Part shown: in pieces, positions 1,153 through 64,000 of the stretch
Position numbering within the stretch: position 1 is the first letter of the stretch
How the letters are laid out: the number at the start of each line of letters is the position of its first letter
Assembly (NCBI RefSeq): GCF_058153355.1
Contig: NZ_CM177019.1
DNA: 64,000 nt
Strand: one strand, 5' to 3'
The notes under the pieces: model-generated
The model's input: the letters and a program-made list of their open reading frames with translations, nothing else
Databases searched by the model: none
What the model was told of the DNA's origin: nothing
Translations under genes and position numbers: made by a program

Positions 1153-2157
1153 TTAAAGCGGATCGACTTTCAGGCAAGACACGGCGTGTCTGAAACTCCC
1201 CTCCAGCACAGGACGTGTTTTGGCACACTCTGGACCGGCAATCGGGCAACGGGTACGGAAAACACAACCGGAAGGCGGGTTGATCGGCGACGGTAATTCC
1301 CCTTCCAGTAACTGGATAGTTTTGTTCTTCTCCAGATCCGGATCAGGTATGGGGACTGCCGACATCAATGCCCTGGTGTAAGGATGTAGCGGATTGTGGT
1401 AGACCTCATCATAGGTCCCCAGTTCTACCGCATGGCCGAGATACATCACCAGCACACGATCGGAAATGTGTTTTACCACGGCCAGGTCGTGAGCGATAAA
1501 AATTAATGACAATCCCATCTCGCGTTGCAGCTGCTGGAGCAGGTTGACCACCTGCGCCTGAATTGACACGTCCAGCGCCGACACCGGCTCATCACAGATA
1601 ATCAGCTTCGGTTCAAGAATAAGAGCACGAGCAATCCCGATACGCTGGCACTGCCCACCAGAGAACTCATGCGGATAGCGGTTAATCAGGTTAGGCAATA
1701 ACCCGACTTTCAGCATCATCGCCTTCACGCGCTCGCGAACTTCCTGGCGTGACATTTTCGGATGATAAGTACGCAGTGGTTCAGCGATGATCTCGCCGAT
1801 GGTCATACGCGGGTTAAGCGATGCCAATGGATCCTGGAAAATCATCTGAATATCACTGCGAACGGCACGCCATTCATCGGGCTTCATGCCCAGCAACTCT
1901 TTACCTAACCAGGCAACATGACCGTCGGTCGCTTTAACCAGGCCAATGATGGCGCGAGCAAAGGTGGACTTACCGCATCCCGACTCCCCTACCACACCTA
2001 ATGTTTCCCCTTCATACAGGCGAAGAGTTACACCATCTACGGCTTTGAGCGTTTTCGGCGGTTGCCAGAACCACTGTTTGCCATCTTTGATTTCAAAGTG
2101 CACTTTCAGATCGGCGATTTCGAGGAGGACTTTTCTTCCTTCGGTTACAGCATTCAT
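1153..2157 (-). CDS. oppF: oligopeptide ABC transporter ATP-binding protein OppF
   Basis: 334-aa ORF with Walker A GESGCGKST and ABC signature LSGGQ; 4-bp overlap with oppD. Confidence 0.93.
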   Translation of the reverse strand: MNAVTEGRKVLLEIADLKVHFEIKDGKQWFWQPPKTLKAVDGVTLRLYEGETLGVVGESGCGKSTFARAIIGLVKATDGHVAWLGKELLGMKPDEWRAVRSDIQMIFQDPLASLNPRMTIGEIIAEPLRTYHPKMSRQEVRERVKAMMLKVGLLPNLINRYPHEFSGGQCQRIGIARALILEPKLIICDEPVSALDVSIQAQVVNLLQQLQREMGLSLIFIAHDLAVVKHISDRVLVMYLGHAVELGTYDEVYHNPLHPYTRALMSAVPIPDPDLEKNKTIQLLEGELPSPINPPSGCVFRTRCPIAGPECAKTRPVLEGSFRHAVSCLKVDPL

Positions 2158-3167
2158 AACAGTTCCTCCACCGGTTTAAAGCAAGCACGCAAACGGCCAG
2201 GCGTAAACTCTTCCAGCGGCGGTGCGCTACTACAAATTTCCATCGCATGCGGACAACGTGGCTGGAACGGGCAACCTTTCGGTAATCGCAACAGGTTTGG
2301 CGGATTACCCGGGATGGTCAACATTGTTTCACCTTCCGCATCGAGACGCGGCACCGCGTTGAGTAAACCGATAGAATAAGGATGAACGGGTTGATAAAAG
2401 ACATCGCGCGCGTTGCCATATTCCATCGTGCGCCCGGCGTACATGACCAGCACTTTGTCGCAGATCCCTGCCACCACGCCAAGATCGTGGGTGATCATAA
2501 TGATGGCGGTATTAAATTCCCGCTTCAGTTCATTCAATAGCGTCATGATCTGCGCCTGTACGGTGACGTCCAACGCAGTAGTGGGTTCATCAGCAATCAG
2601 CAGCTTAGGTCGACATAGCAATGCCATCGCAATCATGACTCTTTGACGCATGCCGCCAGAAAATTCATGCGGAAACATCTTCATGCGTTTACGCGCTTCC
2701 GGCATTTTTACCGCATCGAGCATCCGCACCGACTCTTCAAACGCCTCAGATTTGCTCATGTTCTTATGCAACATCAGCACTTCCATCAACTGCTCACCGA
2801 CGCGCATATAGGGATTCAACGAAGTCATCGGATCCTGAAAAATCATTGAGATTTGTTCAGCACGCAGTTTATTGAGTTCACGCTCTGGCAAATTGAGGAT
2901 TTCACGCCCATTGAAGGTTGCCGATCCGCCAATACGTCCGTTGGCGGCCAGCAGGCCCATCAACGCAAATGCAGTTTGCGATTTACCCGAACCAGACTCA
3001 CCTACAATGCCCAGCGTTTCTCCGGCACGTAGGGAAAAATTCAAATCATTGACCGCCGTGACGTCGCCGTCCGGGGTACTAAAGGTGACACGCAAATCTT
3101 TCACGTTCAGCAGTGCGTCAGCCTGTTGTTGTGCGAGCGGCACAGTTGCAGTTTCAATTACGCTCAT
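2154..3167 (-). CDS. oppD: oligopeptide ABC transporter ATP-binding protein OppD
   Basis: 337-aa ORF with Walker A GESGSGKS and signature FSGGMRQR; operon position. Confidence 0.93.
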   Translation of the reverse strand: MSVIETATVPLAQQQADALLNVKDLRVTFSTPDGDVTAVNDLNFSLRAGETLGIVGESGSGKSQTAFALMGLLAANGRIGGSATFNGREILNLPERELNKLRAEQISMIFQDPMTSLNPYMRVGEQLMEVLMLHKNMSKSEAFEESVRMLDAVKMPEARKRMKMFPHEFSGGMRQRVMIAMALLCRPKLLIADEPTTALDVTVQAQIMTLLNELKREFNTAIIMITHDLGVVAGICDKVLVMYAGRTMEYGNARDVFYQPVHPYSIGLLNAVPRLDAEGETMLTIPGNPPNLLRLPKGCPFQPRCPHAMEICSSAPPLEEFTPGRLRACFKPVEELL

Positions 3168-3178
3168 GGCTGCACTCC

Positions 3179-4087
3179 TTAACGATCTTTCGGGTCGAGG
3201 GCATCACGCAAGCCATCGCCGATAAAGTTGAAACAAAATAGCGTCACCACGAGGAATCCCGCTGGGAACAACAGTAACCATGGAGAGACTTCCATCGAGT
3301 TCGCGCCATCACTCAGCAATGCGCCCCAGCTGCTTAACGGCTCTTGCGTCCCCAACCCCAGGAAGCTAAGGAAAGATTCAAAGAGGATCATGCTGGGCAC
3401 CAGTAGCGATGCGTAGACCACCACCACACCGAGTACGTTCGGTACAATGTGGCGAATAACAATGCCCGGCGTCGATACACCGCCAACTTGTGCCGCCTCA
3501 ATAAACTCTTTGCGCTTCAGACTCAGGGTTTGCCCACGCACAATACGAGCCATATCCAGCCAGGAAACCATGCCTATCGCCACGAAAATCAGCAGGATGT
3601 TTTGACCGAAAAAGGTCACCAGCAAAATGACGAAGAACATGAATGGGAAGGAGTTGAGGATTTCCAGCAGACGCATCATTACCGAATCCACTTTACCGCC
3701 CAGATAACCGGAAAGCGAACCATAAAGTGTCCCGACGACCACAGCCACCAGTGCCGCAGCAACACCGACCATGAGTGAGATACGCCCGCCAATCGCAACG
3801 CGCACAAGCAGGTCGCGACCGGATGAGTCAGTACCAAAGTAGTGACCGGACTCCATATCTGGGGCGCTGGACATCATCGCCCAGTCAGTATCGTCATAGG
3901 CAAACTGCGAAAGCATCGGTGCCAGGATTACAAATAACGCGATTAGCACCAGCACTATCAGACTGGCAACCGCCGCACGGTTATGCATAAAACGTCGACG
4001 TGCGTCCTGCCACAAGCTGCGCCCTTCGACCTCCAGCTTTTCACTGAAATTTTCCAGCGTCTCGCTGTTTTTCTTACTTAACATCAT
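3179..4087 (-). CDS. oppC: oligopeptide ABC transporter permease OppC
   Basis: 302-aa hydrophobic multi-pass ORF with permease-type composition; operon position. Confidence 0.92.
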   Translation of the reverse strand: MMLSKKNSETLENFSEKLEVEGRSLWQDARRRFMHNRAAVASLIVLVLIALFVILAPMLSQFAYDDTDWAMMSSAPDMESGHYFGTDSSGRDLLVRVAIGGRISLMVGVAAALVAVVVGTLYGSLSGYLGGKVDSVMMRLLEILNSFPFMFFVILLVTFFGQNILLIFVAIGMVSWLDMARIVRGQTLSLKRKEFIEAAQVGGVSTPGIVIRHIVPNVLGVVVVYASLLVPSMILFESFLSFLGLGTQEPLSSWGALLSDGANSMEVSPWLLLFPAGFLVVTLFCFNFIGDGLRDALDPKDR

Positions 4088-4101
4088 CGCGAGCTCCAGT
4101 A

Positions 4102-5022
4102 TCAGTAACGGATTTTCGGGTCGATAACCGCATATAGCACATCGACAATGGCATTAAACAAAATGGTTAACGCGCCAACCAGAATGGTCAGACTTAACAC
4201 TAAGGAATAGTCACGATTCAATGCGCCATTAACGAACAATTGCCCAATCCCCGGTAAACCATAAATGGTTTCGATGACCATAGAACCGGTAATAATGCCG
4301 ACAAATGCAGGGCCCATATAGGAGAGCACGGGTAACAGAGCAGGTTTTAATGCGTGACGTAAAATGATCCGCCGCATAGGTAACCCTTTCGCCCGGGCAG
4401 TACGAATAAAATTGGAGTGTAATACTTCAATCATAGAGCCACGGGTAATACGCGCAATACTGGCGATATAGGCGAGTGACAACGCCACCATTGGCAGTAT
4501 CATGAATTTAAGCGCACCACCATTCCAGCCACCGCCCGGCAGCCAATGCAAAATGATCGCAAATATCATGACTAATAATGGCGCAACCACAAAACTGGGG
4601 ATAACAACCCCGGTCATTGCCAGCCCCATCACGGTATAGTCCCATTTGGTGTTTTGTTTTAATGCTGCAATAACGCCAGCACTAACACCCAGTATTACCG
4701 CAAGGAAAAATGCTGCGGCTCCCAGTTTTGCTGAAACGGGAAAACTGGATGCAACTAGGTCGTTGACCGAATAATCTTTATATTTAAACGATGGACCGAA
4801 ATCGCCATGCGCCAGTTGTTTCAGGTAGCTGAAATACTGTGTCATGATCGGATCATTAAGATGATATTTCGCTTCGATATTGGCCATCACTTCTGGCGGT
4901 AAAGTACGTTCGCCGGTAAAAGGGCTTCCCGGCGCGAGGCGCATCATGAAGAACGAAATAGTAATAAGAATAAATAGCGTCGGAATCGCTTCCAGACAGC
5001 GACGTAGAATAAATTTTAACAT
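4102..5022 (-). CDS. oppB: oligopeptide ABC transporter permease OppB
   Basis: 306-aa ORF, hydrophobic, typical DppB/OppB-family N-terminus MLKFILRRCLEAIPTLFIL. Confidence 0.92.
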   Translation of the reverse strand: MLKFILRRCLEAIPTLFILITISFFMMRLAPGSPFTGERTLPPEVMANIEAKYHLNDPIMTQYFSYLKQLAHGDFGPSFKYKDYSVNDLVASSFPVSAKLGAAAFFLAVILGVSAGVIAALKQNTKWDYTVMGLAMTGVVIPSFVVAPLLVMIFAIILHWLPGGGWNGGALKFMILPMVALSLAYIASIARITRGSMIEVLHSNFIRTARAKGLPMRRIILRHALKPALLPVLSYMGPAFVGIITGSMVIETIYGLPGIGQLFVNGALNRDYSLVLSLTILVGALTILFNAIVDVLYAVIDPKIRY

Positions 5023-5107
5023 TGCCCTACCTTCTGGCCTGTGCCTTCTGTAATGCGATAAAAATCAGACACCGTGGAGCAGGACACTCCTGCCCCACGT
5101 ATTGCCA

Positions 5108-6739
5108 TTAGTGCTTCACAATGTACATATTCCGGGTGTAGGTATTATCCAGCGGATCTTTGCCGGTATAGCCACCAACCCACGGTTTCACCAGACGCGC
5201 ATTCACGTAGTAATAAACAGGAACAATGGCCGAATCCTTATCCAGCTGTTGTTCTGCTTTAGTGTACAGAGCTGTGCGCTGCGCCTCGTCAGTCGCTTTC
5301 AGCGTTTCCGCCATAATGCTGTCAAAGGCCGGGCTCTTATAATGCGCGGTATTCATCGAGCTGTTCGACAGCATGGTGTTCAGGAAGGAAGTTGGTTCGT
5401 TGTAGTCTGCACACCAGCCTGCACGGGCCACATCAAAAGTACCCTGGTGACGGGTGTCGAGGAACGTTTTCCACTCCTGGTTAACCAGTTTGACGTTTAC
5501 ACCAATGTTTTTCTTCCATAATGAAGAGGCAGCAATCGCCAGCTTTTTATGCAGATCGGAGGTGTTATACAACAGGTTGATGGTCAACGGTTTGTCTGCG
5601 GTATAACCCGCTTCAGCCAGCAGTTTTTTCGCTTCTTCGTTACGTTTTTCCTGGCTCCAGCCAAACCATTCCGGCTGAGTCAATTTTGCGCCATCAGTAT
5701 ACGGTGGAGTGTAACCATAGGCGGGCATGTCGCCCTGCGCTTTCACTTTATTAACAATGATATCGCGGTCCATACCCAGTTTCAGTGCGGTACGCACACG
5801 TACATCGTTGAATGGCGGTTTCTGGTTGTTAATTTCGTAATAATAAGTGCACAGGTATGGATCAACGTGAACTTCGTCCGGGATCTCTTTTTTCAGCTTC
5901 TGGAACAATTCGATCGGCATGTTGTTATAAGTCATGTCGATTTCACCACTACGGTAGCGGTTGACATCGGTAACTTCAGAAGCAATAGGCAAATAGGTTA
6001 CCTGGTTAATAACGGTTTTCGCGTTGTTCCAGTAGGTTGGGCTGCGTTCAAGAACGATTCGTTCGTTTACGACCCAATCTTTTAAGGTATAGGCACCGTT
6101 GGTGATGATATTACCAGGCTGGGTCCATTTTTCGCCGAATTTCTCGATAGCGGCTTTTGGCACCGGTGAAGTTGATGGGTGAACAAGTAATTTATAGAAG
6201 TACGGAACAGGTTCACTTAAGGTGACTTCTAATGTGTGATCATCAATAGCTTTCACGCCGAGATCGGTAATCGGTTTTTTCCCTTCAAGAATTTCATCAA
6301 TACCGGCGATATGCCCATATTGCAGATAACTGGCATACGGAGAAGCGGTGTTTGGATCAACAGAACGTTGCCAGCTATACACAAAGTCTTGTGCTGTGAC
6401 TGGCGTGCCATCAGACCATTTCGCATCTTTACGCAAATGGAAGGTCCAGACTTTCGCGTCTTTATTATCCCAGGATTCAGCGACGCCAGGTGCCGGATGA
6501 CCGTCAAGATCGCTGACCAGTAAGCCTTCAAACAGGTCTCGGCTGATATTAGACTCCGGAACACCTTCAATTTTATGCGGATCTAATGACTGAACTTCTG
6601 AACCATTGTTACGTACCAGCGTTTGTTTTTCCGCCAGTGTGACGCCTGCGGGTACATCAGCTGCCAGCGCGACATTCCCTGCCATAAGCGCAGCCAGAAC
6701 GCCAGCTGCTACTAAACTTCTCTTGGTGATGTTGGTCAT
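5108..6739 (-). CDS. oppA: periplasmic oligopeptide-binding protein OppA
   Basis: ORF 5108..6811; start placed at the internal ATG giving MTNITKRSLVAAGVLAALMAGNVALA signal peptide (543 aa). Confidence 0.9.
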   Translation of the reverse strand: MTNITKRSLVAAGVLAALMAGNVALAADVPAGVTLAEKQTLVRNNGSEVQSLDPHKIEGVPESNISRDLFEGLLVSDLDGHPAPGVAESWDNKDAKVWTFHLRKDAKWSDGTPVTAQDFVYSWQRSVDPNTASPYASYLQYGHIAGIDEILEGKKPITDLGVKAIDDHTLEVTLSEPVPYFYKLLVHPSTSPVPKAAIEKFGEKWTQPGNIITNGAYTLKDWVVNERIVLERSPTYWNNAKTVINQVTYLPIASEVTDVNRYRSGEIDMTYNNMPIELFQKLKKEIPDEVHVDPYLCTYYYEINNQKPPFNDVRVRTALKLGMDRDIIVNKVKAQGDMPAYGYTPPYTDGAKLTQPEWFGWSQEKRNEEAKKLLAEAGYTADKPLTINLLYNTSDLHKKLAIAASSLWKKNIGVNVKLVNQEWKTFLDTRHQGTFDVARAGWCADYNEPTSFLNTMLSNSSMNTAHYKSPAFDSIMAETLKATDEAQRTALYTKAEQQLDKDSAIVPVYYYVNARLVKPWVGGYTGKDPLDNTYTRNMYIVKH

Positions 6740-11316: not shown

Positions 11317-12742
11317 TAATGCCGATCAGTTAAGGATCAGTTGACCGATCCAGTGGCTGTGTAAGAATCCGGAAACGCTCACTTGTTTCCGGATTTTTTT
11401 ATGCACATTGGACAGGCTCTTGATCTGGTATCCCGTTACGATTCTCTGCGTAACCCACTGACTTCTCTGGGGGATTACCTCGACCCCGAACTCATCTCTC
11501 GTTGCCTTGCCGAATCAGGTACTGTAACGCTACGCAAGCGCCGTCTTCCCCTCGAAATGATGGTCTGGTGTATTGTTGGCATGGCGCTTGAGCGTAAAGA
11601 ACCTCTTCACCAGATTGTGAATCGCCTGGACATCATGCTGCCGGGCAATCGCCCCTTCGTTGCCCCCAGTGCCGTTATTCAGGCCCGCCAGCGCCTGGGA
11701 AGTGAGGCTGTCCGCCGCGTGTTCACGAAAACAGCGCAGCTCTGGCATAACGCCACGCCGCATCCGCACTGGTGCGGCCTGACCCTGCTGGCCATCGATG
11801 GTGTGTTCTGGCGCACACCGGATACACCAGAGAACGATGCAGCCTTCCCCCGCCAGACACATGCCGGGAACCCGGCGCTCTACCCGCAGGTCAAAATGGT
11901 CTGCCAGATGGAACTGACCAGCCATCTGCTGACGGCTGCAGCCTTCGGCACGATGAAGAACAGCGAAAATGAGCTTGCTGAGCAACTTATAGAACAAACC
12001 GGCGATAACACTCTGACGTTAATGGATAAAGGTTATTACTCACTGGGACTGTTAAATGCCTGGAGCCTGGCGGGAGAACACCGCCACTGGATGATACCTC
12101 TCAGAAAGGGAGCGCAATATGAAGAGATCAGAAAACTGGGTAAAGGCGATCATCTGGTGAAGCTGAAAACCAGCCCGCAGGCACGAAAAAAGTGGCCGGG
12201 ACTGGGAAATGAAGTGACAGCCCGCCTGCTGACCGTGACGCGCAAAGGAAAAGTCTGCCATCTGCTGACGTCGATGACGGACGCCATGCGCTTCCCCGGA
12301 GGAGAAATGGCGGATCTGTACAGTCATCGCTGGGAAATCGAACTGGGATACAGGGAGATAAAACAGACGATGCAACTGAGCAGGCTGACGCTGAGAAGTA
12401 AAAAGCCGGAGCTTGTGGAGCAAGAGCTGTGGGGTGTCTTACTGGCTTATAATCTGGTGAGATATCAGATGATTAAAATGGCGGAACATCTGAAAGGTTA
12501 CTGGCCGAATCAACTGAGTTTCTCAGAATCATGCGGAATGGTGATGAGAATGCTGATGACATTGCAGGGCGCTTCACCGGGACGTATACCGGAGCTGATG
12601 CGCGATCTTGCAAGTATGGGACAACTTGTGAAATTACCGACAAGAAGGGAAAGGGCCTTCCCGAGAGTGGTAAAGGAGAGGCCCTGGAAATACCCCACAG
12701 CCCCGAAAAAGAGCCAGTCAGTTGCTTAACTGACTGGCATTA
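11317..12742 (+). mobile_element. IS4 insertion sequence, complete (1426 bp)
   Basis: imperfect terminal inverted repeats TAATGCCGATCAGTTAAG (left) and TAATGCCAGTCAGTTAAG (reverse complement of right end), 16/18 identical; length 1426 bp; single transposase ORF; 11-bp direct repeats. Confidence 0.9.
11401..12729 (+). CDS. IS4-family DDE transposase
   Basis: 442-aa ORF from ATG 11401 (track ORF starts at alternative TTG 11383); C-terminal Y(2)R(3)E(6)K signature [15 protein letters not shown] typical of the IS4 family. Confidence 0.9.
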
Positions 12743-53596: not shown

Positions 53597-55516
53597 TCAT
53601 ACCCGGCGCTTAAACTGCCCTGCATCAATGCCATGTTGCTTCATTTTCCGCCACAGCGTAGTGCGGCCGATTCCAAGTAAAGCCGACATTTCCTGAATGC
53701 GACCGCCTGTGACCTGGGCTGCGTTAATAATTGCCTCTTTTTCAACTTCCGCAAATGACAGACTGGTGGAAAGGCGAGTGGCGCTGACATCATCTGTCGC
53801 CTGCTCGGTAAACAGATGTTCAGGCAAATCACTGACGCGAATGCGCCCGTTATCACTACTCAGAGCAAGATTCTCGATGACGCTGTAAAGTTCAAAATCG
53901 TTGCCTGGCCATGCACAAGAAACCAGGCGAGCGAGGGCATCGTCATCAATTTTCAGACGCGTAGAGAAGCGTTTTTCAAGACTGCGTAATTTGTTATTCA
54001 CCAGCGCCGGAATGCTGCCACGCCGCATACGCAGAGGCGGGATGGTAATTTCAAATGCATGCAGCGCGTAATACAGCTGGCGACTAAAGCGATTTTGTTC
54101 CACCAGCATTGCCAGGTCCGCGGTCGTTGTGGCAATCACTTTGACATCAATTGGTATTAAACGCCGCGCATCCAGTCGCGTGATAACACCCTGCTTGATA
54201 ACCTGAAGCAAAGCAGACTGTAACTCCACCGCCAGATATTCAATCTTTTCAAGAAACAGCGTGCCGCCGTGCGCCAGTTCCAGTCGACTCAGACGACCAT
54301 TTTCATTGTCCGTGCGATCGCCGCCAATAAATTCTTCCGCCAGCGCCGCATCACCATATAACTCACAATTGACGGCGATGTAGGGACCTGCTGCACGCTC
54401 ACTTTCATTATGAATTGCCTGACTTAGCAGTGCCTTGCCTACGCCCTCTTCGCCACAAAGCAAAACAGGAAAGCTACTACGCGCCGCCTGGCGGCCAAAA
54501 TGAATCAAGCGGCGAGTTTGCGGATCGTCCTGTGGCATATGAGCGAAGGTATGGCTGACTTTTCCCAATTGACTGGTCATCAACTGCCGCATCTGTTCCA
54601 CGGGATGGAGCAACAAAATAAAGCTGGTTCCCTGCGTTTCTATTATCGGTTTAAGGGTTATCACAGCATCAATAAACTGGTGCTGACTTTCAAAGGTTGC
54701 TTCTACGTGTTTGAGCGGATGTGCCTGTTTTATTGCTTGTTGCAATACAGCGGGTAACGTTAAGAGTTCAGTGATCGCCCTTCCCTGACTTGCCGTCGCG
54801 TCAAGGCGCAAGACTCGCGCCGCCTGGGCATTGATAAATTGCAAATTACCCTGCTCGTCCCAGCTAATCACGCCATCGTCCATACTTTCCAGCAAGGCGT
54901 TAAGTTGATTTAAATGTCGGTTTGTTTCAGCCAGTAAATTGTCGGTCAGCAGTAAGTTTCCTACCTCGCGTGCAATTGCCAGCGTCAACGGCAAATCAGC
55001 TGCGGTGGTTTGCTTAACCGGACACGCCAAAGCTATCGTTCCCGTTAATCGGCCCTTGCTGTCAAACAGTGGCGTTGCACAAAATGCCCAATCCCAGAGC
55101 GCCTGTTTGAAATGTTGATCGGCCATCGTTTTCACTGCCTGACCAGAAATAGCCGCTAACGATAGCGCACAGGTACCAATAATTCCCTCTGCGCAATACG
55201 TGCCGTCATTGAATCCCAGGACACTAAGCTGGTGCAGCGTTTGTGGATCACCAAAACGACTAAGGATGCAGGCGGTTTCATCAAGGATGAACAGTCCGCA
55301 CGCCCGCGATTCCATATATTCCCAGGCATCTTCCAGCGCAGCCTGCCCGAGCGTCAGCATCGCTTTCTTACGCCGATAGATAGAAGCAAATGTCACGCCC
55401 TGGGCCTGGTGCGGTACGCTCCATGTCTCCCGTTTCATCAGTTTATTGCATCGCTCCCAGGAGGCTGCAATTAAGGGAGATATGCCCCGTTCATCGTTGT
55501 TAAAAGCGCCACTCAT
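53597..55516 (-). CDS. dhaR: dha operon transcriptional activator DhaR
   Basis: ORF 53597..55597; ATG at 55516 gives 639 aa MSGAFNNDERGISPL...; AAA+ central domain (GEEGVGK) and C-terminal Fis-type HTH. Confidence 0.9.
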   Translation of the reverse strand: MSGAFNNDERGISPLIAASWERCNKLMKRETWSVPHQAQGVTFASIYRRKKAMLTLGQAALEDAWEYMESRACGLFILDETACILSRFGDPQTLHQLSVLGFNDGTYCAEGIIGTCALSLAAISGQAVKTMADQHFKQALWDWAFCATPLFDSKGRLTGTIALACPVKQTTAADLPLTLAIAREVGNLLLTDNLLAETNRHLNQLNALLESMDDGVISWDEQGNLQFINAQAARVLRLDATASQGRAITELLTLPAVLQQAIKQAHPLKHVEATFESQHQFIDAVITLKPIIETQGTSFILLLHPVEQMRQLMTSQLGKVSHTFAHMPQDDPQTRRLIHFGRQAARSSFPVLLCGEEGVGKALLSQAIHNESERAAGPYIAVNCELYGDAALAEEFIGGDRTDNENGRLSRLELAHGGTLFLEKIEYLAVELQSALLQVIKQGVITRLDARRLIPIDVKVIATTTADLAMLVEQNRFSRQLYYALHAFEITIPPLRMRRGSIPALVNNKLRSLEKRFSTRLKIDDDALARLVSCAWPGNDFELYSVIENLALSSDNGRIRVSDLPEHLFTEQATDDVSATRLSTSLSFAEVEKEAIINAAQVTGGRIQEMSALLGIGRTTLWRKMKQHGIDAGQFKRRV

Positions 55517-55603
55517 ATCCCGCATCCTTTGTGACAAAAGGTGTTCCGGCTCGCAATTTTTAGTATTAAAACGCGTAAAAGTTTCAATATGGAACATTCA
55601 TTA

Positions 55604-55628
55604 AAACATATGTTTCACCATGAAACAT
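55604..55628. promoter_or_regulatory. overlapping inverted repeats AAACATATGTTT and ATGTTTCA-CCA-TGAAACAT in the dhaR/dhaK divergent region; candidate DhaR operator
   Basis: perfect palindromes seen directly in sequence between divergent dhaR and dhaKLM. Confidence 0.4.
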
Positions 55629-55743
55629 AATTTGGGCTAATTTTCTTTTCCCTTACCTGATGCACAATGGATTTATCGGCAGTCAGTGGTCGCCGTGTCG
55701 TTGAACATCATCCATGCCCTACCGTAATTGCTGGAGCAAGATA

Positions 55744-56814
55744 ATGAAAAAATTGATCAATGATGTGCAAGACGTTCTGGACGAACAACTGGCGGGTCTG
55801 GCGAAAGCGCATTCATCGCTGACACTGCATCAGGATCCGGTGTATGTCACCCGAGCTGATGCCCCCGTTGCAGGAAAAGTCGCCCTGCTGTCGGGCGGCG
55901 GCAGCGGACACGAACCGATGCACTGCGGTTATATCGGTCAAGGGATGCTTTCGGGAGCCTGTCCGGGCGAAATATTCACCTCACCGACGCCCGATAAAAT
56001 TTTTGAATGCGCCATGCAAGTTGATGGCGGCGAAGGTGTACTGCTGATTATCAAAAATTACACCGGCGATATTCTTAACTTCGAAACAGCAACAGAATTA
56101 CTGCACGATAGCGGCGTAAAAGTGACCACCGTGGTCATTGATGACGACGTTGCAGTAAAAGACAGTCTTTATACCGCTGGGCGGCGCGGCGTTGCCAACA
56201 CCGTATTAATCGAAAAACTCGTAGGCGCAGCGGCAGAACGTGGCGACTCGCTGGAGGCTTGTGCACAACTGGGGCGTAAGTTGAACAATCAGGGCCATTC
56301 TATTGGGATCGCCCTCGGTGCCTGTACCGTTCCTGCCGCGGGAAAACCTTCTTTTACGCTGGCAGATAATGAGATGGAGTTTGGCGTCGGCATTCATGGT
56401 GAGCCAGGTATTGACCGCCGTCCCTTCTCTTCCCTTGATCAAACCGTCGATGAAATGTTCGACACCCTGCTGGAAAATGGCTCATACCATCGCACTTTGC
56501 GTTTCTGGGATTATCAACAAGGCAGCTGGCAGGAAGAATCACAAACCAAACAACCGCTCCAGTCTGGCGATCGGGTGATTGCGCTGGTTAACAATCTTGG
56601 CGCAACTCCGCTTTCTGAGCTGTACGGCGTCTATAACCGCCTGACCACACGTTGCCAGCAAGCGGGATTGACTATCGAGCGTAATTTAATTGGCGCGTAC
56701 TGCACCTCACTGGATATGACCGGTTTCTCAATCACCTTACTGAAAGTTGATGACGAAACGCTGGCACTCTGGGACGCCCCGGTCCACACCCCGGCGCTTA
56801 ACTGGGGTAAATAA
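55744..56814 (+). CDS. dhaK: dihydroxyacetone kinase, dihydroxyacetone-binding subunit DhaK
   Basis: ORF 55714..56814; ATG at 55744 gives 356 aa MKKLINDVQDVLDEQLAGL... Confidence 0.95.
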   Translation: MKKLINDVQDVLDEQLAGLAKAHSSLTLHQDPVYVTRADAPVAGKVALLSGGGSGHEPMHCGYIGQGMLSGACPGEIFTSPTPDKIFECAMQVDGGEGVLLIIKNYTGDILNFETATELLHDSGVKVTTVVIDDDVAVKDSLYTAGRRGVANTVLIEKLVGAAAERGDSLEACAQLGRKLNNQGHSIGIALGACTVPAAGKPSFTLADNEMEFGVGIHGEPGIDRRPFSSLDQTVDEMFDTLLENGSYHRTLRFWDYQQGSWQEESQTKQPLQSGDRVIALVNNLGATPLSELYGVYNRLTTRCQQAGLTIERNLIGAYCTSLDMTGFSITLLKVDDETLALWDAPVHTPALNWGK

Positions 56815-56824
56815 GGAGATAACC

Positions 56825-57457
56825 ATGTCACTGAGCAGAACTCAAATTGTTAACTGGCTCACTCGCTGTGGAGAAATTTTCAGCACCGAGAGCGAGTATC
56901 TTACCGGACTGGATCGCGAAATTGGCGACGCTGACCACGGGCTAAATATGAACCGTGGCTTTAGCAAGGTGGTAGAAAAACTCCCTGCTATCGCAGATAA
57001 AGATATCGGTTTCATTCTCAAGAATACCGGCATGACGCTACTTTCCAGCGTCGGAGGTGCCAGTGGTCCGCTGTTCGGTACCTTCTTTATCCGCGCCGCA
57101 CAGACAACCCAGGCACGGCAAAGCCTGACGCTGGAAGAACTGTATCAGATGTTCCGCGATGGTGTAGACGGCGTAATCAGTCGCGGGAAAGCCGAACCTG
57201 GCGATAAAACCATGTGTGATGTCTGGGTGCCGGTGGTGGAATCGTTACGTCAGTCCAGCGAGCAAAATCTCTCTGTTCCGGTGGCGCTCGAAGCCGCCAG
57301 TAGCGTCGCTGAATCCGCTGCACAAAGTACGATTACGATGCAAGCCCGCAAAGGCCGCGCCAGTTATCTCGGTGAACGCAGTATTGGTCACCAGGATCCC
57401 GGCGCGACCTCCGTGATGTTTATGATGCAAATGCTGGCGTTAGCCGCAAAAGAGTAA
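56825..57457 (+). CDS. dhaL: dihydroxyacetone kinase, ADP-binding subunit DhaL
   Basis: 210-aa product from ATG 56825 MSLSRTQIVNWLTRCGEIF... Confidence 0.93.
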   Translation: MSLSRTQIVNWLTRCGEIFSTESEYLTGLDREIGDADHGLNMNRGFSKVVEKLPAIADKDIGFILKNTGMTLLSSVGGASGPLFGTFFIRAAQTTQARQSLTLEELYQMFRDGVDGVISRGKAEPGDKTMCDVWVPVVESLRQSSEQNLSVPVALEAASSVAESAAQSTITMQARKGRASYLGERSIGHQDPGATSVMFMMQMLALAAKE

Positions 57458-57467
57458 GGAAATGGTG

Positions 57468-58886
57468 ATGGTAAACCTGGTCATAGTTTCACATAGCGCC
57501 CGACTGGGAGAAGGTGTCGGTGAATTAGCCCGTCAGATGTTAATGAGTGATAGCTGTAAAATCGCCATTGCCGCGGGAATTGACGATCCCCAAAATCCCA
57601 TTGGTACCGATGCCGTCAAAGTGATGGAGGCCATCGAGTCCGTTGCCGATGCCGACCATGTGCTGGTGATGATGGATATGGGTAGCGCATTATTGAGTGC
57701 TGAAACTGCACTGGAGTTGCTGGCCCCCGAGATCGCCGCAAAAGTACGTTTGTGTGCGGCACCGTTAGTCGAAGGTACACTGGCAGCAACAGTCAGCGCG
57801 GCCTCGGGAGCAGATATCGACAAAGTTATCTATGACGCCATGCATGCGCTGGAAGCCAAACGTGAACAACTGGGTTTACCGTCCTCCGACACCGAAATCG
57901 CTGACACATGTCCTCCGTACGATGAAGAAGCCCATTCTCTGGCCGTGGTCATTAAAAACCGTAACGGCCTTCATGTACGTCCGGCCTCCCGGCTGGTTTA
58001 TACCTTATCGACATTTAATGCCGATATGTTGCTGGAGAAAAACGGTAAATGCGTCACGCCGGAGAGTATTAACCAGATCGCGCTACTACAAGTCCGCTAT
58101 AACGATACGCTGCGCCTGATTGCGAAAGGGCCAGAAGCTGAAGAGGCGCTGGTTGCTTTCCGTCAGCTGGCTGAAGATAACTTTGGTGAAACGGAAGAAG
58201 TTGCTCCGCCTACTCAGCGGCCCATTCCGCCTGTTTCGGGTAAAGCCTTTTATTATCAACCAGTTTTATGTACGGTACAGGCAAAATCAACTCTGACCGT
58301 GGAAGAAGAACAAGAACGATTACGTCAGGCAATTGACTTCACGTTATTAGATCTGATGACGTTAACAGCGAAAGCAGAAGCGAGCGGGCTTGACGATATT
58401 GCCGCAATCTTTTCTGGTCACCATACACTGTTAGATGATCCAGAACTGCTGGCGGCGGCAAACGAATTTCTTCAGCATGAGCATTGCACAGCAGAATATG
58501 CCTGGCAGCACGTTCTTAAAGAACTAAGCCAGCAATACCAACAACTGGATGATGAATATTTACAGGCTCGCTATATCGATGTGGACGATCTTCTACATCG
58601 CACCCTAATCCACCTGACGCAAACGAAAGAAGAACTCCCGCAATTTAACTCGCCAACCATTTTACTGGCGGAGAACATTTATCCGTCCACGGTTCTGCAA
58701 CTGGATCCGGCGGTTGTAAAAGGGATCTGCCTTAGCACCGGAAGTCTGGTATCCCACAGTGCCCTAATCGCCCACGAACTGGGGATTGGCTGGATTTGCC
58801 AGCAGGGTGAGAAACTGTATGCGATACAACCTGAAGAAACGTTAACGCTGGACGTTAAAACGCAACGTTTCAGCCATCAGGGATAA
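57468..58886 (+). CDS. dhaM: dihydroxyacetone kinase phosphotransfer subunit DhaM (EIIA-HPr-EI fusion)
   Basis: ORF 57462..58886; 472 aa from second ATG; EIIA-Man-like N-terminus, HPr-like middle and EI-like C-terminus. Confidence 0.9.
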   Translation: MVNLVIVSHSARLGEGVGELARQMLMSDSCKIAIAAGIDDPQNPIGTDAVKVMEAIESVADADHVLVMMDMGSALLSAETALELLAPEIAAKVRLCAAPLVEGTLAATVSAASGADIDKVIYDAMHALEAKREQLGLPSSDTEIADTCPPYDEEAHSLAVVIKNRNGLHVRPASRLVYTLSTFNADMLLEKNGKCVTPESINQIALLQVRYNDTLRLIAKGPEAEEALVAFRQLAEDNFGETEEVAPPTQRPIPPVSGKAFYYQPVLCTVQAKSTLTVEEEQERLRQAIDFTLLDLMTLTAKAEASGLDDIAAIFSGHHTLLDDPELLAAANEFLQHEHCTAEYAWQHVLKELSQQYQQLDDEYLQARYIDVDDLLHRTLIHLTQTKEELPQFNSPTILLAENIYPSTVLQLDPAVVKGICLSTGSLVSHSALIAHELGIGWICQQGEKLYAIQPEETLTLDVKTQRFSHQG

Positions 58887-59635
58887 ACCACCGTTCGGAT
58901 GGCATCGTTCTGATGCCATCCGGCAATTTACTCTGCTCTGATATTTTTTAACTACCTGTTATATTTTTTACCAAATCATGATGATTTTTTCTGCGCTAAT
59001 CGCAAACCAAACGTCGCTGGCTGGCTAATAAACAGACGTTATTTAATCACTCTATTTCACCCTTATTTATCCCTTTAATCTCCTTTTCCAAAATGCCTGA
59101 CAGTTCGCAGAATGAGATTTCGATCATGCAGTTAGTGCGATCCTGAACTAAGGTTTTCTGATACTTGAATACCGTTTTGTTCGGTTTCGCCCAAGGAGAA
59201 TGATTGATGAAAGCCACCGCCCCTCCTCGCCCGCAAAAAATAGCGTTAATTCCCGCCTGCGTTTTGTTGTGTTTCGCTGCGCTAGCGGTGCAGGCAGAAG
59301 AAACGCCAGTAACGCCACAGCCGCCTGATATTTTGTTAGGGCCGCTGTTTAACGATGTGCAAAACGCCAAACTTTTTCCGGACCAAAAGACCTTTGCTGA
59401 TGCCGTGCCGAACAGCGATCCGCTAATGATCCTTGCAGATTATCGAATGCAGCAAAACCAGAGCGGCTTTGATCTGCGCCATTTCGTTAACGTCAATTTC
59501 ACTCTGCCGAAAGAGGGAGAGAAATATGTTCCGCCAGAAGGGCAGTCGCTGCGCGAACATATTGACGGACTTTGGCCTGTATTAACGCGTTCTACCGAAA
59601 ACACCGAAAAATGGGATTCTCTGTTACCGCTGCCG

Positions 59636-59643
59636 GAACCTTA
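59636..59643. repeat. IS66-family target-site duplication, left copy (GAACCTTA)
   Basis: same 8-mer flanks the other end at 62113..62120. Confidence 0.85.
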
Positions 59644-59673
59644 GTAAGCGGCTCGCCAGAACCGTATTGATAT

Positions 59674-61245
59674 TTACTGAGAGCTCAGATCAACTTTCCA
59701 GGGCAACAGATCGCGTACCCGGTTTGCCGGCCAGTCCTGGATATGTTCAATGACGTAACGCAGCCACTTTTCTGGCTCCACATTGTTCAGACGGCATGTG
59801 CCGATCAGCGAGTACAACACCGCAGCATGTTCACCACCGCTGTCAGAACCCGCGAAGAGCCAGTTTTTCCGGCCTACGGCCACTCCCCGTAAGGCGTTCT
59901 CTGCGATGTTGTTGTCGATTTCCACCCAGCCATTACTGCAGTACACGTTCAGTGCATCCCACTGTTTCAGCAGGTATGCGAACGCTTTTGCCGTGTCCGA
60001 GTGACGCGACAGTGTTTTCATCTGTTGCTGTATCCAGTCATACAGTGACTGCATCAGTGGCGCGGCTCTGGCTTTTCTTGCCGCCAGACGCTGTTCTGCT
60101 GAACAGCCCCGGACCTCTGCCTCGATGGCATACAGTTCACCGATACGCTGCAGGGCTTCCGTGGTGATGTCGGTGGGCACTCTTGCATGCACATCGTGGA
60201 TTTTTCTCCGGGCATGAGCCATACATGCGGCTTCCGTTATTCTGCCGGATTCGTACAACGCCCGGTAACCACCGTAAGCATCGGCCTGAAGCACTCCGCT
60301 GTAACCGGCCAGATGATTCTGTGGATGGATACCTTTCCGGTCCGGGCTGTACGCGAACCAGACCGCCGGAGGCATTTCCGAACCGGCGTTACGGTCATCA
60401 CGAACGTAGACCCACAGCCGGGCAGTCCTTGTTTTACCGCTGCCCGGCTCCTGGACCGGAACGGGGATATCATCGGCATGGACTTTACCGGGCATCAGCA
60501 CATACTGGCGCAGGATGTCATACAGCGGTTCCAGCAGTTCAGCAACAGCACCTGTCCAGCGCCCCAGTGTGGCACGGCTCAGCTCCACGCCCTGACGACG
60601 GTATATTTCTGACTGGCGGTATAACGGCAGATGGTCTGCATATTTTCCAGCGACAACATGGGCCAGAAGCCCCGCTCCGGCATAACTGCGTGCAATGGGT
60701 TTTGAAGGCACCGGAGCCTGCACGATATGGTCGCACCGGCAACAGGCCAGTTTCGGACGTTGTGTTTCGATAACCTTAAAGGCGCTGCTGATAAGCTCCA
60801 GTTGCTCTGACACATCACATCCCAGAGAACTGAGTTCGCCACCACAGGCCGGGCAGCATTCCTCTTCCGGACGGATGACCCGGGTTTCACGGGGAAGTGA
60901 GGCAGGTAACGGTTTACGGGCTGAAGACTGGCGCAGGGGAGATGGCAGTACCGGGTCATATTGCTCACCCAGCGTTTCCGCCATTTCTTCCTGAAGAGCG
61001 CTGATTCGCTCCTGTGCTTCCTGTATCTGCCGTTCGGTTTTTGCACGAAGTTTTTCTGAGCTTTTACCGAACTGCATGCGCTGCAGTTTTGCAACCAGCG
61101 CCTTCAGCCGGTTGATTTCGGAAGCATAAGCCGCCACCCGCTGTGAGAGCAGGCGGTTGTATTTCGCCATCTGGCGGATGGTGTCCTGTTGCGTCTGCAA
61201 CAGTGCCCGCAGGCGGGCATTCTCATGAGCAAGTGAGGTGTCCAT
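59674..61245 (-). CDS. IS66-family transposase (TnpC/orf3)
   Basis: 523-aa ORF with N-terminal coiled-coil/leucine zipper, CxxC...CxxC zinc-finger-like motif (CCPACGGEL...ACCRCDH) and DDE region. Confidence 0.9.
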
Positions 61246-61264
61246 ATCCTCACTTTACAACGGG

Positions 61265-61612
61265 TTATATGCGGATGCCAGCGCGTTCCGTTCGTTTCGG
61301 GTGTTTCCAGTCGATGCCCTCAAGAAGCATGGATAACTGGGCCGGAGTAAGGTGCACCTTGCCGTCACGGGTGACCGGCCAGACGAAGCGGCCCCGCTCC
61401 AGGCGTCTGGTGAAGAGGCACAGTCCGTCACTGTCAGCCCACAACACTTTTATCTGGTCACCCCGGCGTCCGCGGAAGATGAACAGATGCCCGGAGAACG
61501 GGTCATCCTTCAGGACGTTCTGAACTTTTGAGGCCAGGCCGTTAAAGCCATTTCGCATATCGGTGATACCTGCAACCAGCCAGATACGCGAACCTGCAGG
61601 GAGAGATATCAC
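61265..61612 (-). CDS. IS66 Orf2 (TnpB) accessory protein
   Basis: 115-aa ORF MISLPAGSRIWLVAGITDMRNGFNGLASKV... typical of IS66 orf2. Confidence 0.85.
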   Translation of the reverse strand: MISLPAGSRIWLVAGITDMRNGFNGLASKVQNVLKDDPFSGHLFIFRGRRGDQIKVLWADSDGLCLFTRRLERGRFVWPVTRDGKVHLTPAQLSMLLEGIDWKHPKRTERAGIRI

Positions 61613-62037
61613 CGTCTCAGCTCCTGTATAAGCAAGGACAGCAGATTTTCATTCACTGCCCCGTTCAACCGAAGGGTGCCGTTTCTGAACGTAATCTCAC
61701 AGGAGATGCTGTGTATTTCCGGTGTTACTGACGGTCTTGCGGTCAGTGGCTCATTAGCCGGAGCAGTTGGGAGTTGGGCATCAATAGTGACAGGAATTAA
61801 CTGAGATTCTCTGCCTGATTCTGATGATGGCAATTTTATCTTCCCCTGCCGCCATTTCTGACGCCATTTGAACAACAGATTGGCATTAATACCATTGTCC
61901 AGGGCCAGTCTGGAAATTGAAACACCTGGCTGGAATGATGCTTCTATGAGTCGTTGTTTGAATTCAGGAGGATAATTCAGGCACCCTTTAGGCCTTCCCG
62001 GAGAGGCATTTTTTTGTATATCTGACATTTTTATCAC
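61609..62037 (-). CDS. IS66 Orf1 (TnpA) HTH accessory protein
   Basis: 142-aa ORF; ATGA overlap with orf2 typical of IS66-family translational coupling. Confidence 0.8.
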   Translation of the reverse strand: MIKMSDIQKNASPGRPKGCLNYPPEFKQRLIEASFQPGVSISRLALDNGINANLLFKWRQKWRQGKIKLPSSESGRESQLIPVTIDAQLPTAPANEPLTARPSVTPEIHSISCEITFRNGTLRLNGAVNENLLSLLIQELRR

Positions 62038-62112
62038 CCACTATTAATTTAGTGGTGGATACTTTGTCCAAAGCATCGGGAATTTGCCAGACGGTCCTGA
62101 TAAGACGCTTAC

Positions 62113-62120
62113 GAACCTTA
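62113..62120. repeat. IS66-family target-site duplication, right copy (GAACCTTA)
   Basis: identical to 59636..59643. Confidence 0.85.
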
Positions 62121-63710
62121 TGTCGTGCCGGGCGGACGTTTTCGCGAGGTATATTACTGGGACAGTTACTTCACCATGTTAGGGCTTGCCGAAAGCGACC
62201 ACTGGGATAAAGTTGCGGATATGGTGGCCAATTTTGCTCATGAAATAGACACTTACGGGCATATTCCCAACGGCAACCGCAGTTACTATTTAAGCCGCTC
62301 GCAACCGCCCTTCTTTGCCCTGATGGTAGAGTTACTGGCGCAGCATGAAGGCGATGCCGCGTTGAAGCAATACCTGCCGCAAATGCAAAAAGAATATGCT
62401 TACTGGATGGACGGTGTTGAAAACCTGCAAGCCGGACAACAGGAAAAACGCGTTGTCAAACTTCAGGATGGTACCCTTCTCAACCGCTACTGGGACGATC
62501 GCGATACGCCACGACCAGAGTCATGGGTGGAAGATATTGCCACCGCCAAAAGCAATCCGAACCGGCCTGCCACTGAAATTTACCGCGACCTGCGCTCTGC
62601 CGCTGCGTCTGGCTGGGATTTCAGCTCGCGCTGGATGGACAATCCGCAGCAGTTAAACACCTTACGCACCACCAGCATCGTACCGGTCGATCTGAACAGC
62701 TTGATGTTCAAAATGGAAAAAAACCTCGCCCGCGCCAGCAAAGCTGCCGGAGATAACGCGATGGCAAACCAGTACGAAACGCTGGCAAATGCCCGTCAAA
62801 AAGGGATCGAAAAATACCTGTGGAACGATCAACAAGGCTGGTATGCCGATTACGACCTGAAAAGTCATAAAGTGCGCAATCAGTTAACCGCTGCCGCCCT
62901 ATTCCCGCTGTACGTCAATGCGGCAGCGAAAGATCGCGCCAACAAAATGGCAACGGCAACGAAAACACATCTGCTGCAACCCGGCGGCCTGAACACCACG
63001 TCGGTGAAAAGTGGGCAACAATGGGATGCACCAAATGGCTGGGCACCGTTGCAGTGGGTCGCGACGGAAGGATTACAAAACTACGGGCAAAAAGAGGTGG
63101 CGATGGACATTAGCTGGCACTTCCTTACCAATGTTCAGCACACCTATGACCGGGAGAAAAAGCTGGTGGAAAAATATGATGTCAGCACCACCGGAACAGG
63201 GGGCGGCGGTGGCGAATATCCATTACAGGATGGCTTTGGCTGGACCAATGGCGTGACGCTGAAAATGCTGGATTTGATCTGCCCGAAAGAGCAACCGTGT
63301 GACAATGTTCCGGCGACGCGTCCACTCAGTGAATCAACAACACAGCCGCTAAAACAAAAAGAGGCGGAACCTACGCCTTAACTTTACTGTATATCGAGCA
63401 ATGCCATTACGTGCATAAAATTGGCATTGCTCTTTCTTCATCACGAAATACCACTCTTTCTACAGTCTATGCCTTTATTTTCTTTTATTAGGGAAGATTT
63501 TAATTTTATTTTATCAACTTGTTAATCATTACACCTCTATTTATATTTTCCCCCACTCCCCATTCTCCCTGACAATTTTCTTGTGGAACAAAGTGTTATT
63601 TAAGAAACAAGCAAATCATTCTGTCTCTTTAGACAAATTTTGACATCAAACATGATCTTTTTCGCTATATGTGTAAGTATATAGCGGTTTTAATTATCAG
63701 GATATTACTT

Positions 63711-64000
63711 ATGTCACTAACCAGACGGAGGTTTACACAGATTCTTGCGTCGACATTGTTCCTGCATCATCTGCCGTCCTTTGCACAATCAGTCAAATTC
63801 TGGGCCTCACTGACGCTTCCCGAAGCCCAAAACATTACACGCATCGTCAGCGCAGGCGCGCCCGCCGATTTACTATTGCTGGCTGTCGCGCCAGAAAAAA
63901 TGGTCGGTTTTTCCTCTTTTGATTTTGCCCGTCAGGCATTAATTCCATTGCCAGAGCACATTCGCCAGTTCCCCAGGCTGGGACGACTCGCCGGGCGCGC
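63711..64000 (+). CDS. hypothetical secreted protein, N-terminal part (3' end outside window); possibly a periplasmic substrate-binding protein
   Basis: own translation: MSLTRRRFTQILASTLFLHHLPSFAQS... (RRxF twin-arginine-like signal, AxA-like cleavage region) then ITRIVSAGAPADLLLLAVAPEKMVGFSSF resembling cluster-A binding proteins; open to window end. Confidence 0.4.
   Translation, partial: MSLTRRRFTQILASTLFLHHLPSFAQSVKFWASLTLPEAQNITRIVSAGAPADLLLLAVAPEKMVGFSSFDFARQALIPLPEHIRQFPRLGRLAGR

Follow-up and report, generated by a model that had tools for sequence, protein, structure and literature searches.

The chromosomal treA gene of an Escherichia coli strain has almost certainly been interrupted by the transposition of a single, complete and probably still active insertion sequence (IS) of the IS66 family. 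Within the window, by which we mean the whole stretch of 64,000 nucleotides of DNA analysed here, treA is split after codon 145 (…LPLPEP); the break lies in codon 146, where 2477 bp (the IS plus one copy of the duplicated target) are inserted. The preliminary description of this DNA had treA divided after LPLPEP by a 2469-bp element; its coordinates all hold, and both synteny and the match to the solved E. coli enzyme agree with it. Our analysis found no sequence evidence contradicting the insertion, and treA in the present strain is an IS-disrupted pseudogene (Table 1).

Table 1. Features of the interrupted treA locus, with positions given in the window
Feature	Position	Strand	Remarks
treA 5' fragment	59207..59644	+	145 codons: signal peptide and first ~115 mature residues; closed by TAG
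Left 8-bp target-site duplication GAACCTTA	59636..59643	.	Exact match
IS66-family insertion sequence	59644..62112	-	2469 bp, complete, antiparallel to treA
IRR	59644..59665	-	7/7 then 17/22 match to IRL
tnpC	59674..61245	-	523-aa DDE transposase; start 19 nt past tnpB stop
tnpB	61265..61612	-	115 aa (MISLPAGSRIWLVAGITDMR…); GTG start
tnpA	61609..62028	-	139 aa from ATG 62028 or 142 aa from GTG 62037; HTH accessory protein
IRL GTAAGCGTCTTATCAGGACCGT (IS sense strand)	62091..62112	-	7/7 then 17/22 match to IRR
Right 8-bp target-site duplication GAACCTTA	62113..62120	.	Exact match
treA 3' fragment	62121..63381	+	Last base of Tyr146 codon, 419 codons and stop

The interrupted treA gene and its setting

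The gene order of the window (cls-opp-adhE-tdk-hns-galU-rssAB-purU-nar-cha-kdsA-prfA-hemA-…-ycgV-dhaRKLM-treA-iron ABC transporter) is normal for E. coli, and the identity to the best of 5426 complete E. coli genomes is 97.9-99.1%, which together indicate an E. coli host from a lineage that is not closely represented among complete genomes. A Shigella host was set aside because the flanks are 98-99% E. coli, the gene order is normal and only one other IS-type gene was noticed in the window, an intact 448-aa IS4-family transposase ORF at 11383-12729 (+) between adhE and tdk. This ORF occupies the same place in several E. coli genomes, where it is annotated 'IS4-like element IS4 family transposase'. 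Downstream of treA, positions 63712-64000 of the window and 1626-5296 of locus L012 hold an iron ABC transporter (substrate-binding protein, FecCD permease and ATPase), past which lie a methyltransferase gene and then a gene with QRPTase_N/C (quinolinate phosphoribosyltransferase) domains. In K-12 the position of the transporter is taken by ycgY-ymgE, and in strain 100117 just a fragment of the cluster is left.

The listing of open reading frames for 59000-64000 shows a treA frame on the + strand that starts at 59204/59207 and ends at a TAG at 59642-59644. Its last codons read GAA CCT TAG, the TTA of the target being followed by the element's first G, just as the preliminary description had derived this stop from the duplication and base 1 of the IS. 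The 5' fragment thus closed carries no catalytic residue. The 3' fragment retains D312 and E496, which we take to be the catalytic residues of TreA, and lacks its own promoter, start codon and signal peptide; the structure of a D-to-A mutant (7E9X) aligns at the catalytic column, consistent with that role.

Deletion in silico of the element and one octamer yields a treA of 1698 nt and 565 codons that is free of stops, and the restored 56-nt junction occurs verbatim in the intact treA of E. coli MFDS1022581 and of strain 100117. The restored protein matches 2JF4, the solved E. coli periplasmic trehalase, over residues 31-565, from which it differs only by G172D, I347N and a variable C-terminal tail. 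Its assignment as a GH37 TreA is supported by this match, by the dhaM-treA synteny (dhaKLM-treA) and by the presence of D312 and E496. When the restored 565-aa TreA was looked up by exact sequence, no intact copy of the allele was on record, and the present strain has no uninterrupted coding sequence for an exportable TreA. The preliminary description had 418 downstream codons remaining in frame once the insertion was removed: the restored gene is indeed open, but the count should be 419 codons plus the last base of the Tyr146 codon, 418 being the codon count of the mechanically listed ORF that opens at an internal GTG (62125).

The element, its genes and its relatives

IS66-family elements make a staggered 8-bp cut that becomes a duplication of the target, and have imperfect terminal inverted repeats beginning with GTAAGCG. 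The present element runs GTAAGCG…CGCTTAC, with IRL at 62112, IRR at 59644 and its genes read from right to left; its inverted repeats are imperfect (a perfect 7 bp, 17/22 overall) and both start with GTAAGCG. The octamer GAACCTTA, which spans treA codons 144-146, directly flanks it on both sides, and two fixed positions would share 8 bp by chance with a probability of 4^-8, or ~1.5e-5. These termini and the perfect duplication were placed by the preliminary description exactly where we find them. A composite transposon or larger island was rejected, since there is one copy of the element in the 64-kb window and the duplication abuts it.

The three-ORF set likewise stands as first described, TnpA, TnpB and TnpC all scoring above their NCBIfam cut-offs: 88.8 bits for TnpA against NF047595 (cut-off 74), 127.8 bits for TnpB against NF033819 (cut-off 50) and 479.3 bits for TnpC against NF033517 (cut-off 180). 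The stop of tnpA and the start of tnpB overlap by 4 nt (GTGA, 61612-61609). For the homologues in assembly GCA_047897835.1 (locus L003), PF01527 is on record for TnpA and PF05717 for TnpB, and an identical TnpC there carries PF13007, PF13005, PF03050 and PF13817 (LZ_Tnp_IS66, zf-IS66, DDE_Tnp_IS66 and DDE_Tnp_IS66_C). The TnpC profile, tnpB upstream of tnpC, tnpA overlapping tnpB and the 8-bp duplication are all as in the IS66 family, and by these features the element is a genuine member of it. A scan for terminator-like structures found the hairpin CCACTATTAATTTAGTGGTGG with a 9-bp stem at 62038-62058, between the left end of the IS and the start of tnpA, which may occlude translation from read-through transcripts.

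Other copies of the element allow its boundaries to be set. The copy in GCA_047897835.1 is 99.8% identical over all 2469 bp with identical ends, and one on the Escherichia albertii plasmid pESA134_1 (NZ_CP070285.2, locus L004) is 95.9% identical, also at full length and with identical ends. They are flanked by 8-bp duplications of their own, CACCGGAC in the former and GAATAAGG in the latter, and these ends and duplications fix the element boundaries independently of treA. The first 80 nt of the IRL end are identical across four copies. Because its genes are intact and near-identical copies occur at other sites with different duplications, the element is probably still active.

All five differences between the L003 copy and the IS in the window fall within 94 nt of tnpB (61397-61490, IS positions 623-716; 2756-2849 of L003), a clustering suggestive of gene conversion between copies of the IS66 family and not of scattered point mutations. 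The L003 copy sits just downstream of a gene for a 1363-aa Peptidase_S6 autotransporter of SPATE type (1-1816 of L003, ABXYKR010000031.1), and two rve-type transposase genes come after it, a setting that looks like a virulence-plasmid or island context. The 95.9% copy is flanked by oppositely oriented partial annotations of the Tn3-family transposase WP_204620305.1 (1-2448 and 5632-8469 of L004), which implies that a Tn3-family element, rearranged or duplicated, surrounds it.

The identity of the element is less straightforward. ISCro1 and its close relative IS679 both belong to the IS66 family and occur in Enterobacteriaceae. In the 5426 complete E. coli genomes, close matches exist only to IS positions 502-2469 (tnpB, tnpC and the right end); they share 97% identity with the IS and are labelled 'IS66-like element ISCro1 family' by RefSeq. 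The first 501 nt (the left end and tnpA) gave no match to an ISCro1-type copy in sensitive blastn; for this segment the best non-cognate matches elsewhere in E. coli are at ~66-69%. The point where similarity changes coincides exactly with the tnpA/tnpB overlap. By the ISfinder convention, which we take to unite copies at ~95% nucleotide identity or more as the same element, the IS would not be ISCro1 itself, near-identity not extending along its whole length. It is best described, from these comparisons, as a modular relative of ISCro1 in which an ISCro1-like tnpB, tnpC and right end are combined with a rare, short tnpA and its left end. The short tnpA module is found at 96% identity in E. 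coli 2013C-3033, as a truncated remnant, and at >=90% identity in only 9 of 72,556 plasmids, its next relatives being at ~65%; an exact scan with the 40-nt left IS end gave 0 matches in 100,044 species-representative genomes. A bolder proposal, that a yet-unnamed IS66 member arose by exchange at the tnpA/tnpB overlap and that its insertion in treA marks one clone, in which it was perhaps selected, strikes us as doubtful.

Age and authenticity of the insertion

Compared with its closest intact allele, the restored treA has 17 synonymous and 2 non-synonymous differences, a dN/dS of 0.03 that indicates purifying selection on treA until recently; among the intact alleles themselves dN/dS is 0.05-0.17. 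Of the six treA alleles compared, the interrupted one alone carries the two missense changes, G172D and I347N. Since the Enterobacter cloacae enzyme 5Z66 naturally has Asp at 172, G172D is probably harmless. Position 347 is a conserved hydrophobic one (I, L and I in three solved homologues), and I347N may be an early sign of relaxed constraint on treA. Both changes could also predate the insertion, in which case the allele was perhaps already impaired. In exact look-ups the variants G172/N347 and D172/I347 had no match, and the G172/I347 reverted variant matched only unrelated IS-free metagenome contigs that carry other defects.

The perfect duplication, the three intact IS genes and a treA without frameshift or stop make a clean and recent insertion a reasonable reading of the sequence. 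The preliminary description had called treA otherwise undecayed and the insertion clean and recent. The first claim is true of the reading frame but has to accommodate G172D and I347N, seen in no other allele of the six; the second is upheld by the duplication and the intact genes, with "recent" having a relative meaning only, as the same junctions are present in contigs of other sequencing runs.

Those contigs also bear on whether the interruption is genuine. Related genomes hold several copies of the element, at which short-read contigs break, so a chimera in which a repeated IS was misplaced into an intact treA during assembly has to be considered. A target-site duplication, however, is not a product of misassembly, and here a perfect one lies exactly at the true ends of the element as set independently by the two other copies. 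Both the left and the right junction, moreover, are present in contigs of other runs, which extend 27-29 nt into the IS: a contig of SRR8656992 equals window 54207-59672 with one mismatch and ends 29 nt into the element, and one of SRR31441161 is 100% identical to window 62086-64000, its first 27 nt belonging to the other end of the element. A real insertion of a repeated IS leaves just this signature in short-read assemblies, contigs that stop shortly after entering the IS, and the exact 145-aa 5' treA product is also called on contigs of other samples. We consider an assembly chimera extremely improbable. The same junctions elsewhere reflect either a clone carrying the allele or one strain sequenced repeatedly; the other read sets rule out a one-off misassembly, and a wide spread of the allele does not follow from them.

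A 752-nt metagenome contig (ENA ERZ925685, locus L002) with an IS-free treA carries a TAT-to-TAG change at the very codon that is split by the IS in the window. Its positions 497-530 correspond to window 59636-59644 and 62113-62146, and a second T-to-G change lies 21 nt downstream of the TAG. Set against the window, its 5' 505 nt are 100% identical and its 3' 256 nt only 96.9%. The contig is probably chimeric or contains errors; that its stop falls at the same codon is a coincidence without explanation.

Functional consequences and comparison with known systems

Under osmotic stress, E. coli relies on TreA to split periplasmic trehalose into glucose, whereas at low osmolarity trehalose is handled by TreB/TreC. 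The preliminary description expected cytoplasmic trehalose metabolism to be unaffected; treF, treBC and otsBA, on which this would depend, lie outside the window. The sequence shows that the transposase made a staggered 8-bp cut at GAACCTTA, that repair duplicated those 8 bp and that treA is left in two pieces, a stopped 5' part and a 3' part that has neither promoter, start nor export signal. Because the 5' part lacks catalytic residues and the 3' part lacks signals for expression and export, the strain should be without periplasmic trehalase; as judged from the sequence the enzyme is presumably not made, and periplasmic trehalose would no longer be split to glucose. The strain should then be impaired in using external trehalose at high osmolarity and in recycling leaked trehalose. 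In the extraintestinal pathogenic E. coli (ExPEC) strain BEN2908, a treA null retains growth on trehalose, is more resistant to 0.6 M urea, has fewer type 1 fimbriae and colonises the mouse bladder more poorly (PMC11228248). By analogy, the present strain could show higher urea tolerance and lower type 1 fimbriation.

Alternatively, the insertion might have rewired the locus, an outward promoter of the IS driving either the 3' part of treA, translated from GTG 62125 or ATG 62176 into a truncated cytoplasmic trehalase, or the iron ABC transporter. There is an open frame of 418 codons after the right junction, and gene callers report a 401-aa product there, for which an exact look-up matched one run; the 418-aa forms of the product gave no match in exact look-ups. 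The IS genes, however, point away from the treA 3' fragment, and a consensus scan for promoters found none directed outward from the right end: inside the IS it gave a single promoter-like site, at 61833-61806 on the minus strand, and the overall number of sites was as expected from shuffled sequence. Any 3' product would in addition miss the first 146 residues of the GH37 fold, and the transporter gene lies >300 nt past the treA stop with a promoter-like site of its own. Rewiring of this kind is therefore very improbable. A selected, lineage-defining inactivation of treA, for instance one adaptive through periplasmic trehalose and urea tolerance or through altered fimbriation, gains something from the measurable phenotypes of treA nulls (PMC11228248) and from the occurrence of the same allele in contigs from several sequencing runs. 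Those runs, however, may represent one clone or even one strain, convergent hits are not evident, and the full-length element is absent from all 5426 complete E. coli genomes, 5320 of which have treA, so that none of them appears to carry the present insertion. We regard adaptive loss as unlikely, and return to an ordinary IS-mediated null allele caused by a member of a well-known family, an event that will not surprise specialists.

In practical terms, treA should be marked in the annotation as an IS-disrupted pseudogene, and the junction offers a precise PCR or k-mer marker for the clone; annotation and strain marking are the main value of the finding, and carriers of the allele are predicted to be without periplasmic trehalase. 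Literature searches centred on treA, periplasmic trehalase and pseudogenes gave no report of an IS in E. coli treA. The mildly new points are confined to the modular make-up and rarity of the element, a small and tidy case of module swapping within the IS66 family, and to the possible decay suggested by I347N.

The closest functional parallels are the engineered treA nulls of ExPEC BEN2908/MT78, in which periplasmic trehalase is completely lost, the outcome expected here (PMC11228248). Those mutants were made in the laboratory, by deletion or transposon mutagenesis, and their phenotypes have been measured, whereas the present allele is a natural IS insertion known from sequence. As for the element itself, its nearest counterpart is the unnamed 2469-bp IS of E. 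albertii plasmids and GCA_047897835.1, which shares its ends, its gene lengths (139/115/523 aa) and its 8-bp duplications, but whose copies on pESA134_1 and in that assembly lie in a Tn3-family transposase gene and beside a serine-protease autotransporter gene, respectively, and not in treA. With ISCro1 it has in common the GTAAGCG termini, the 8-bp duplication and the order of the three genes; in contrast, TnpA of an ISCro1-type copy in the enterotoxigenic strain ETEC H10407 is 225 aa long, as against 139-142 aa in the element that interrupts treA.
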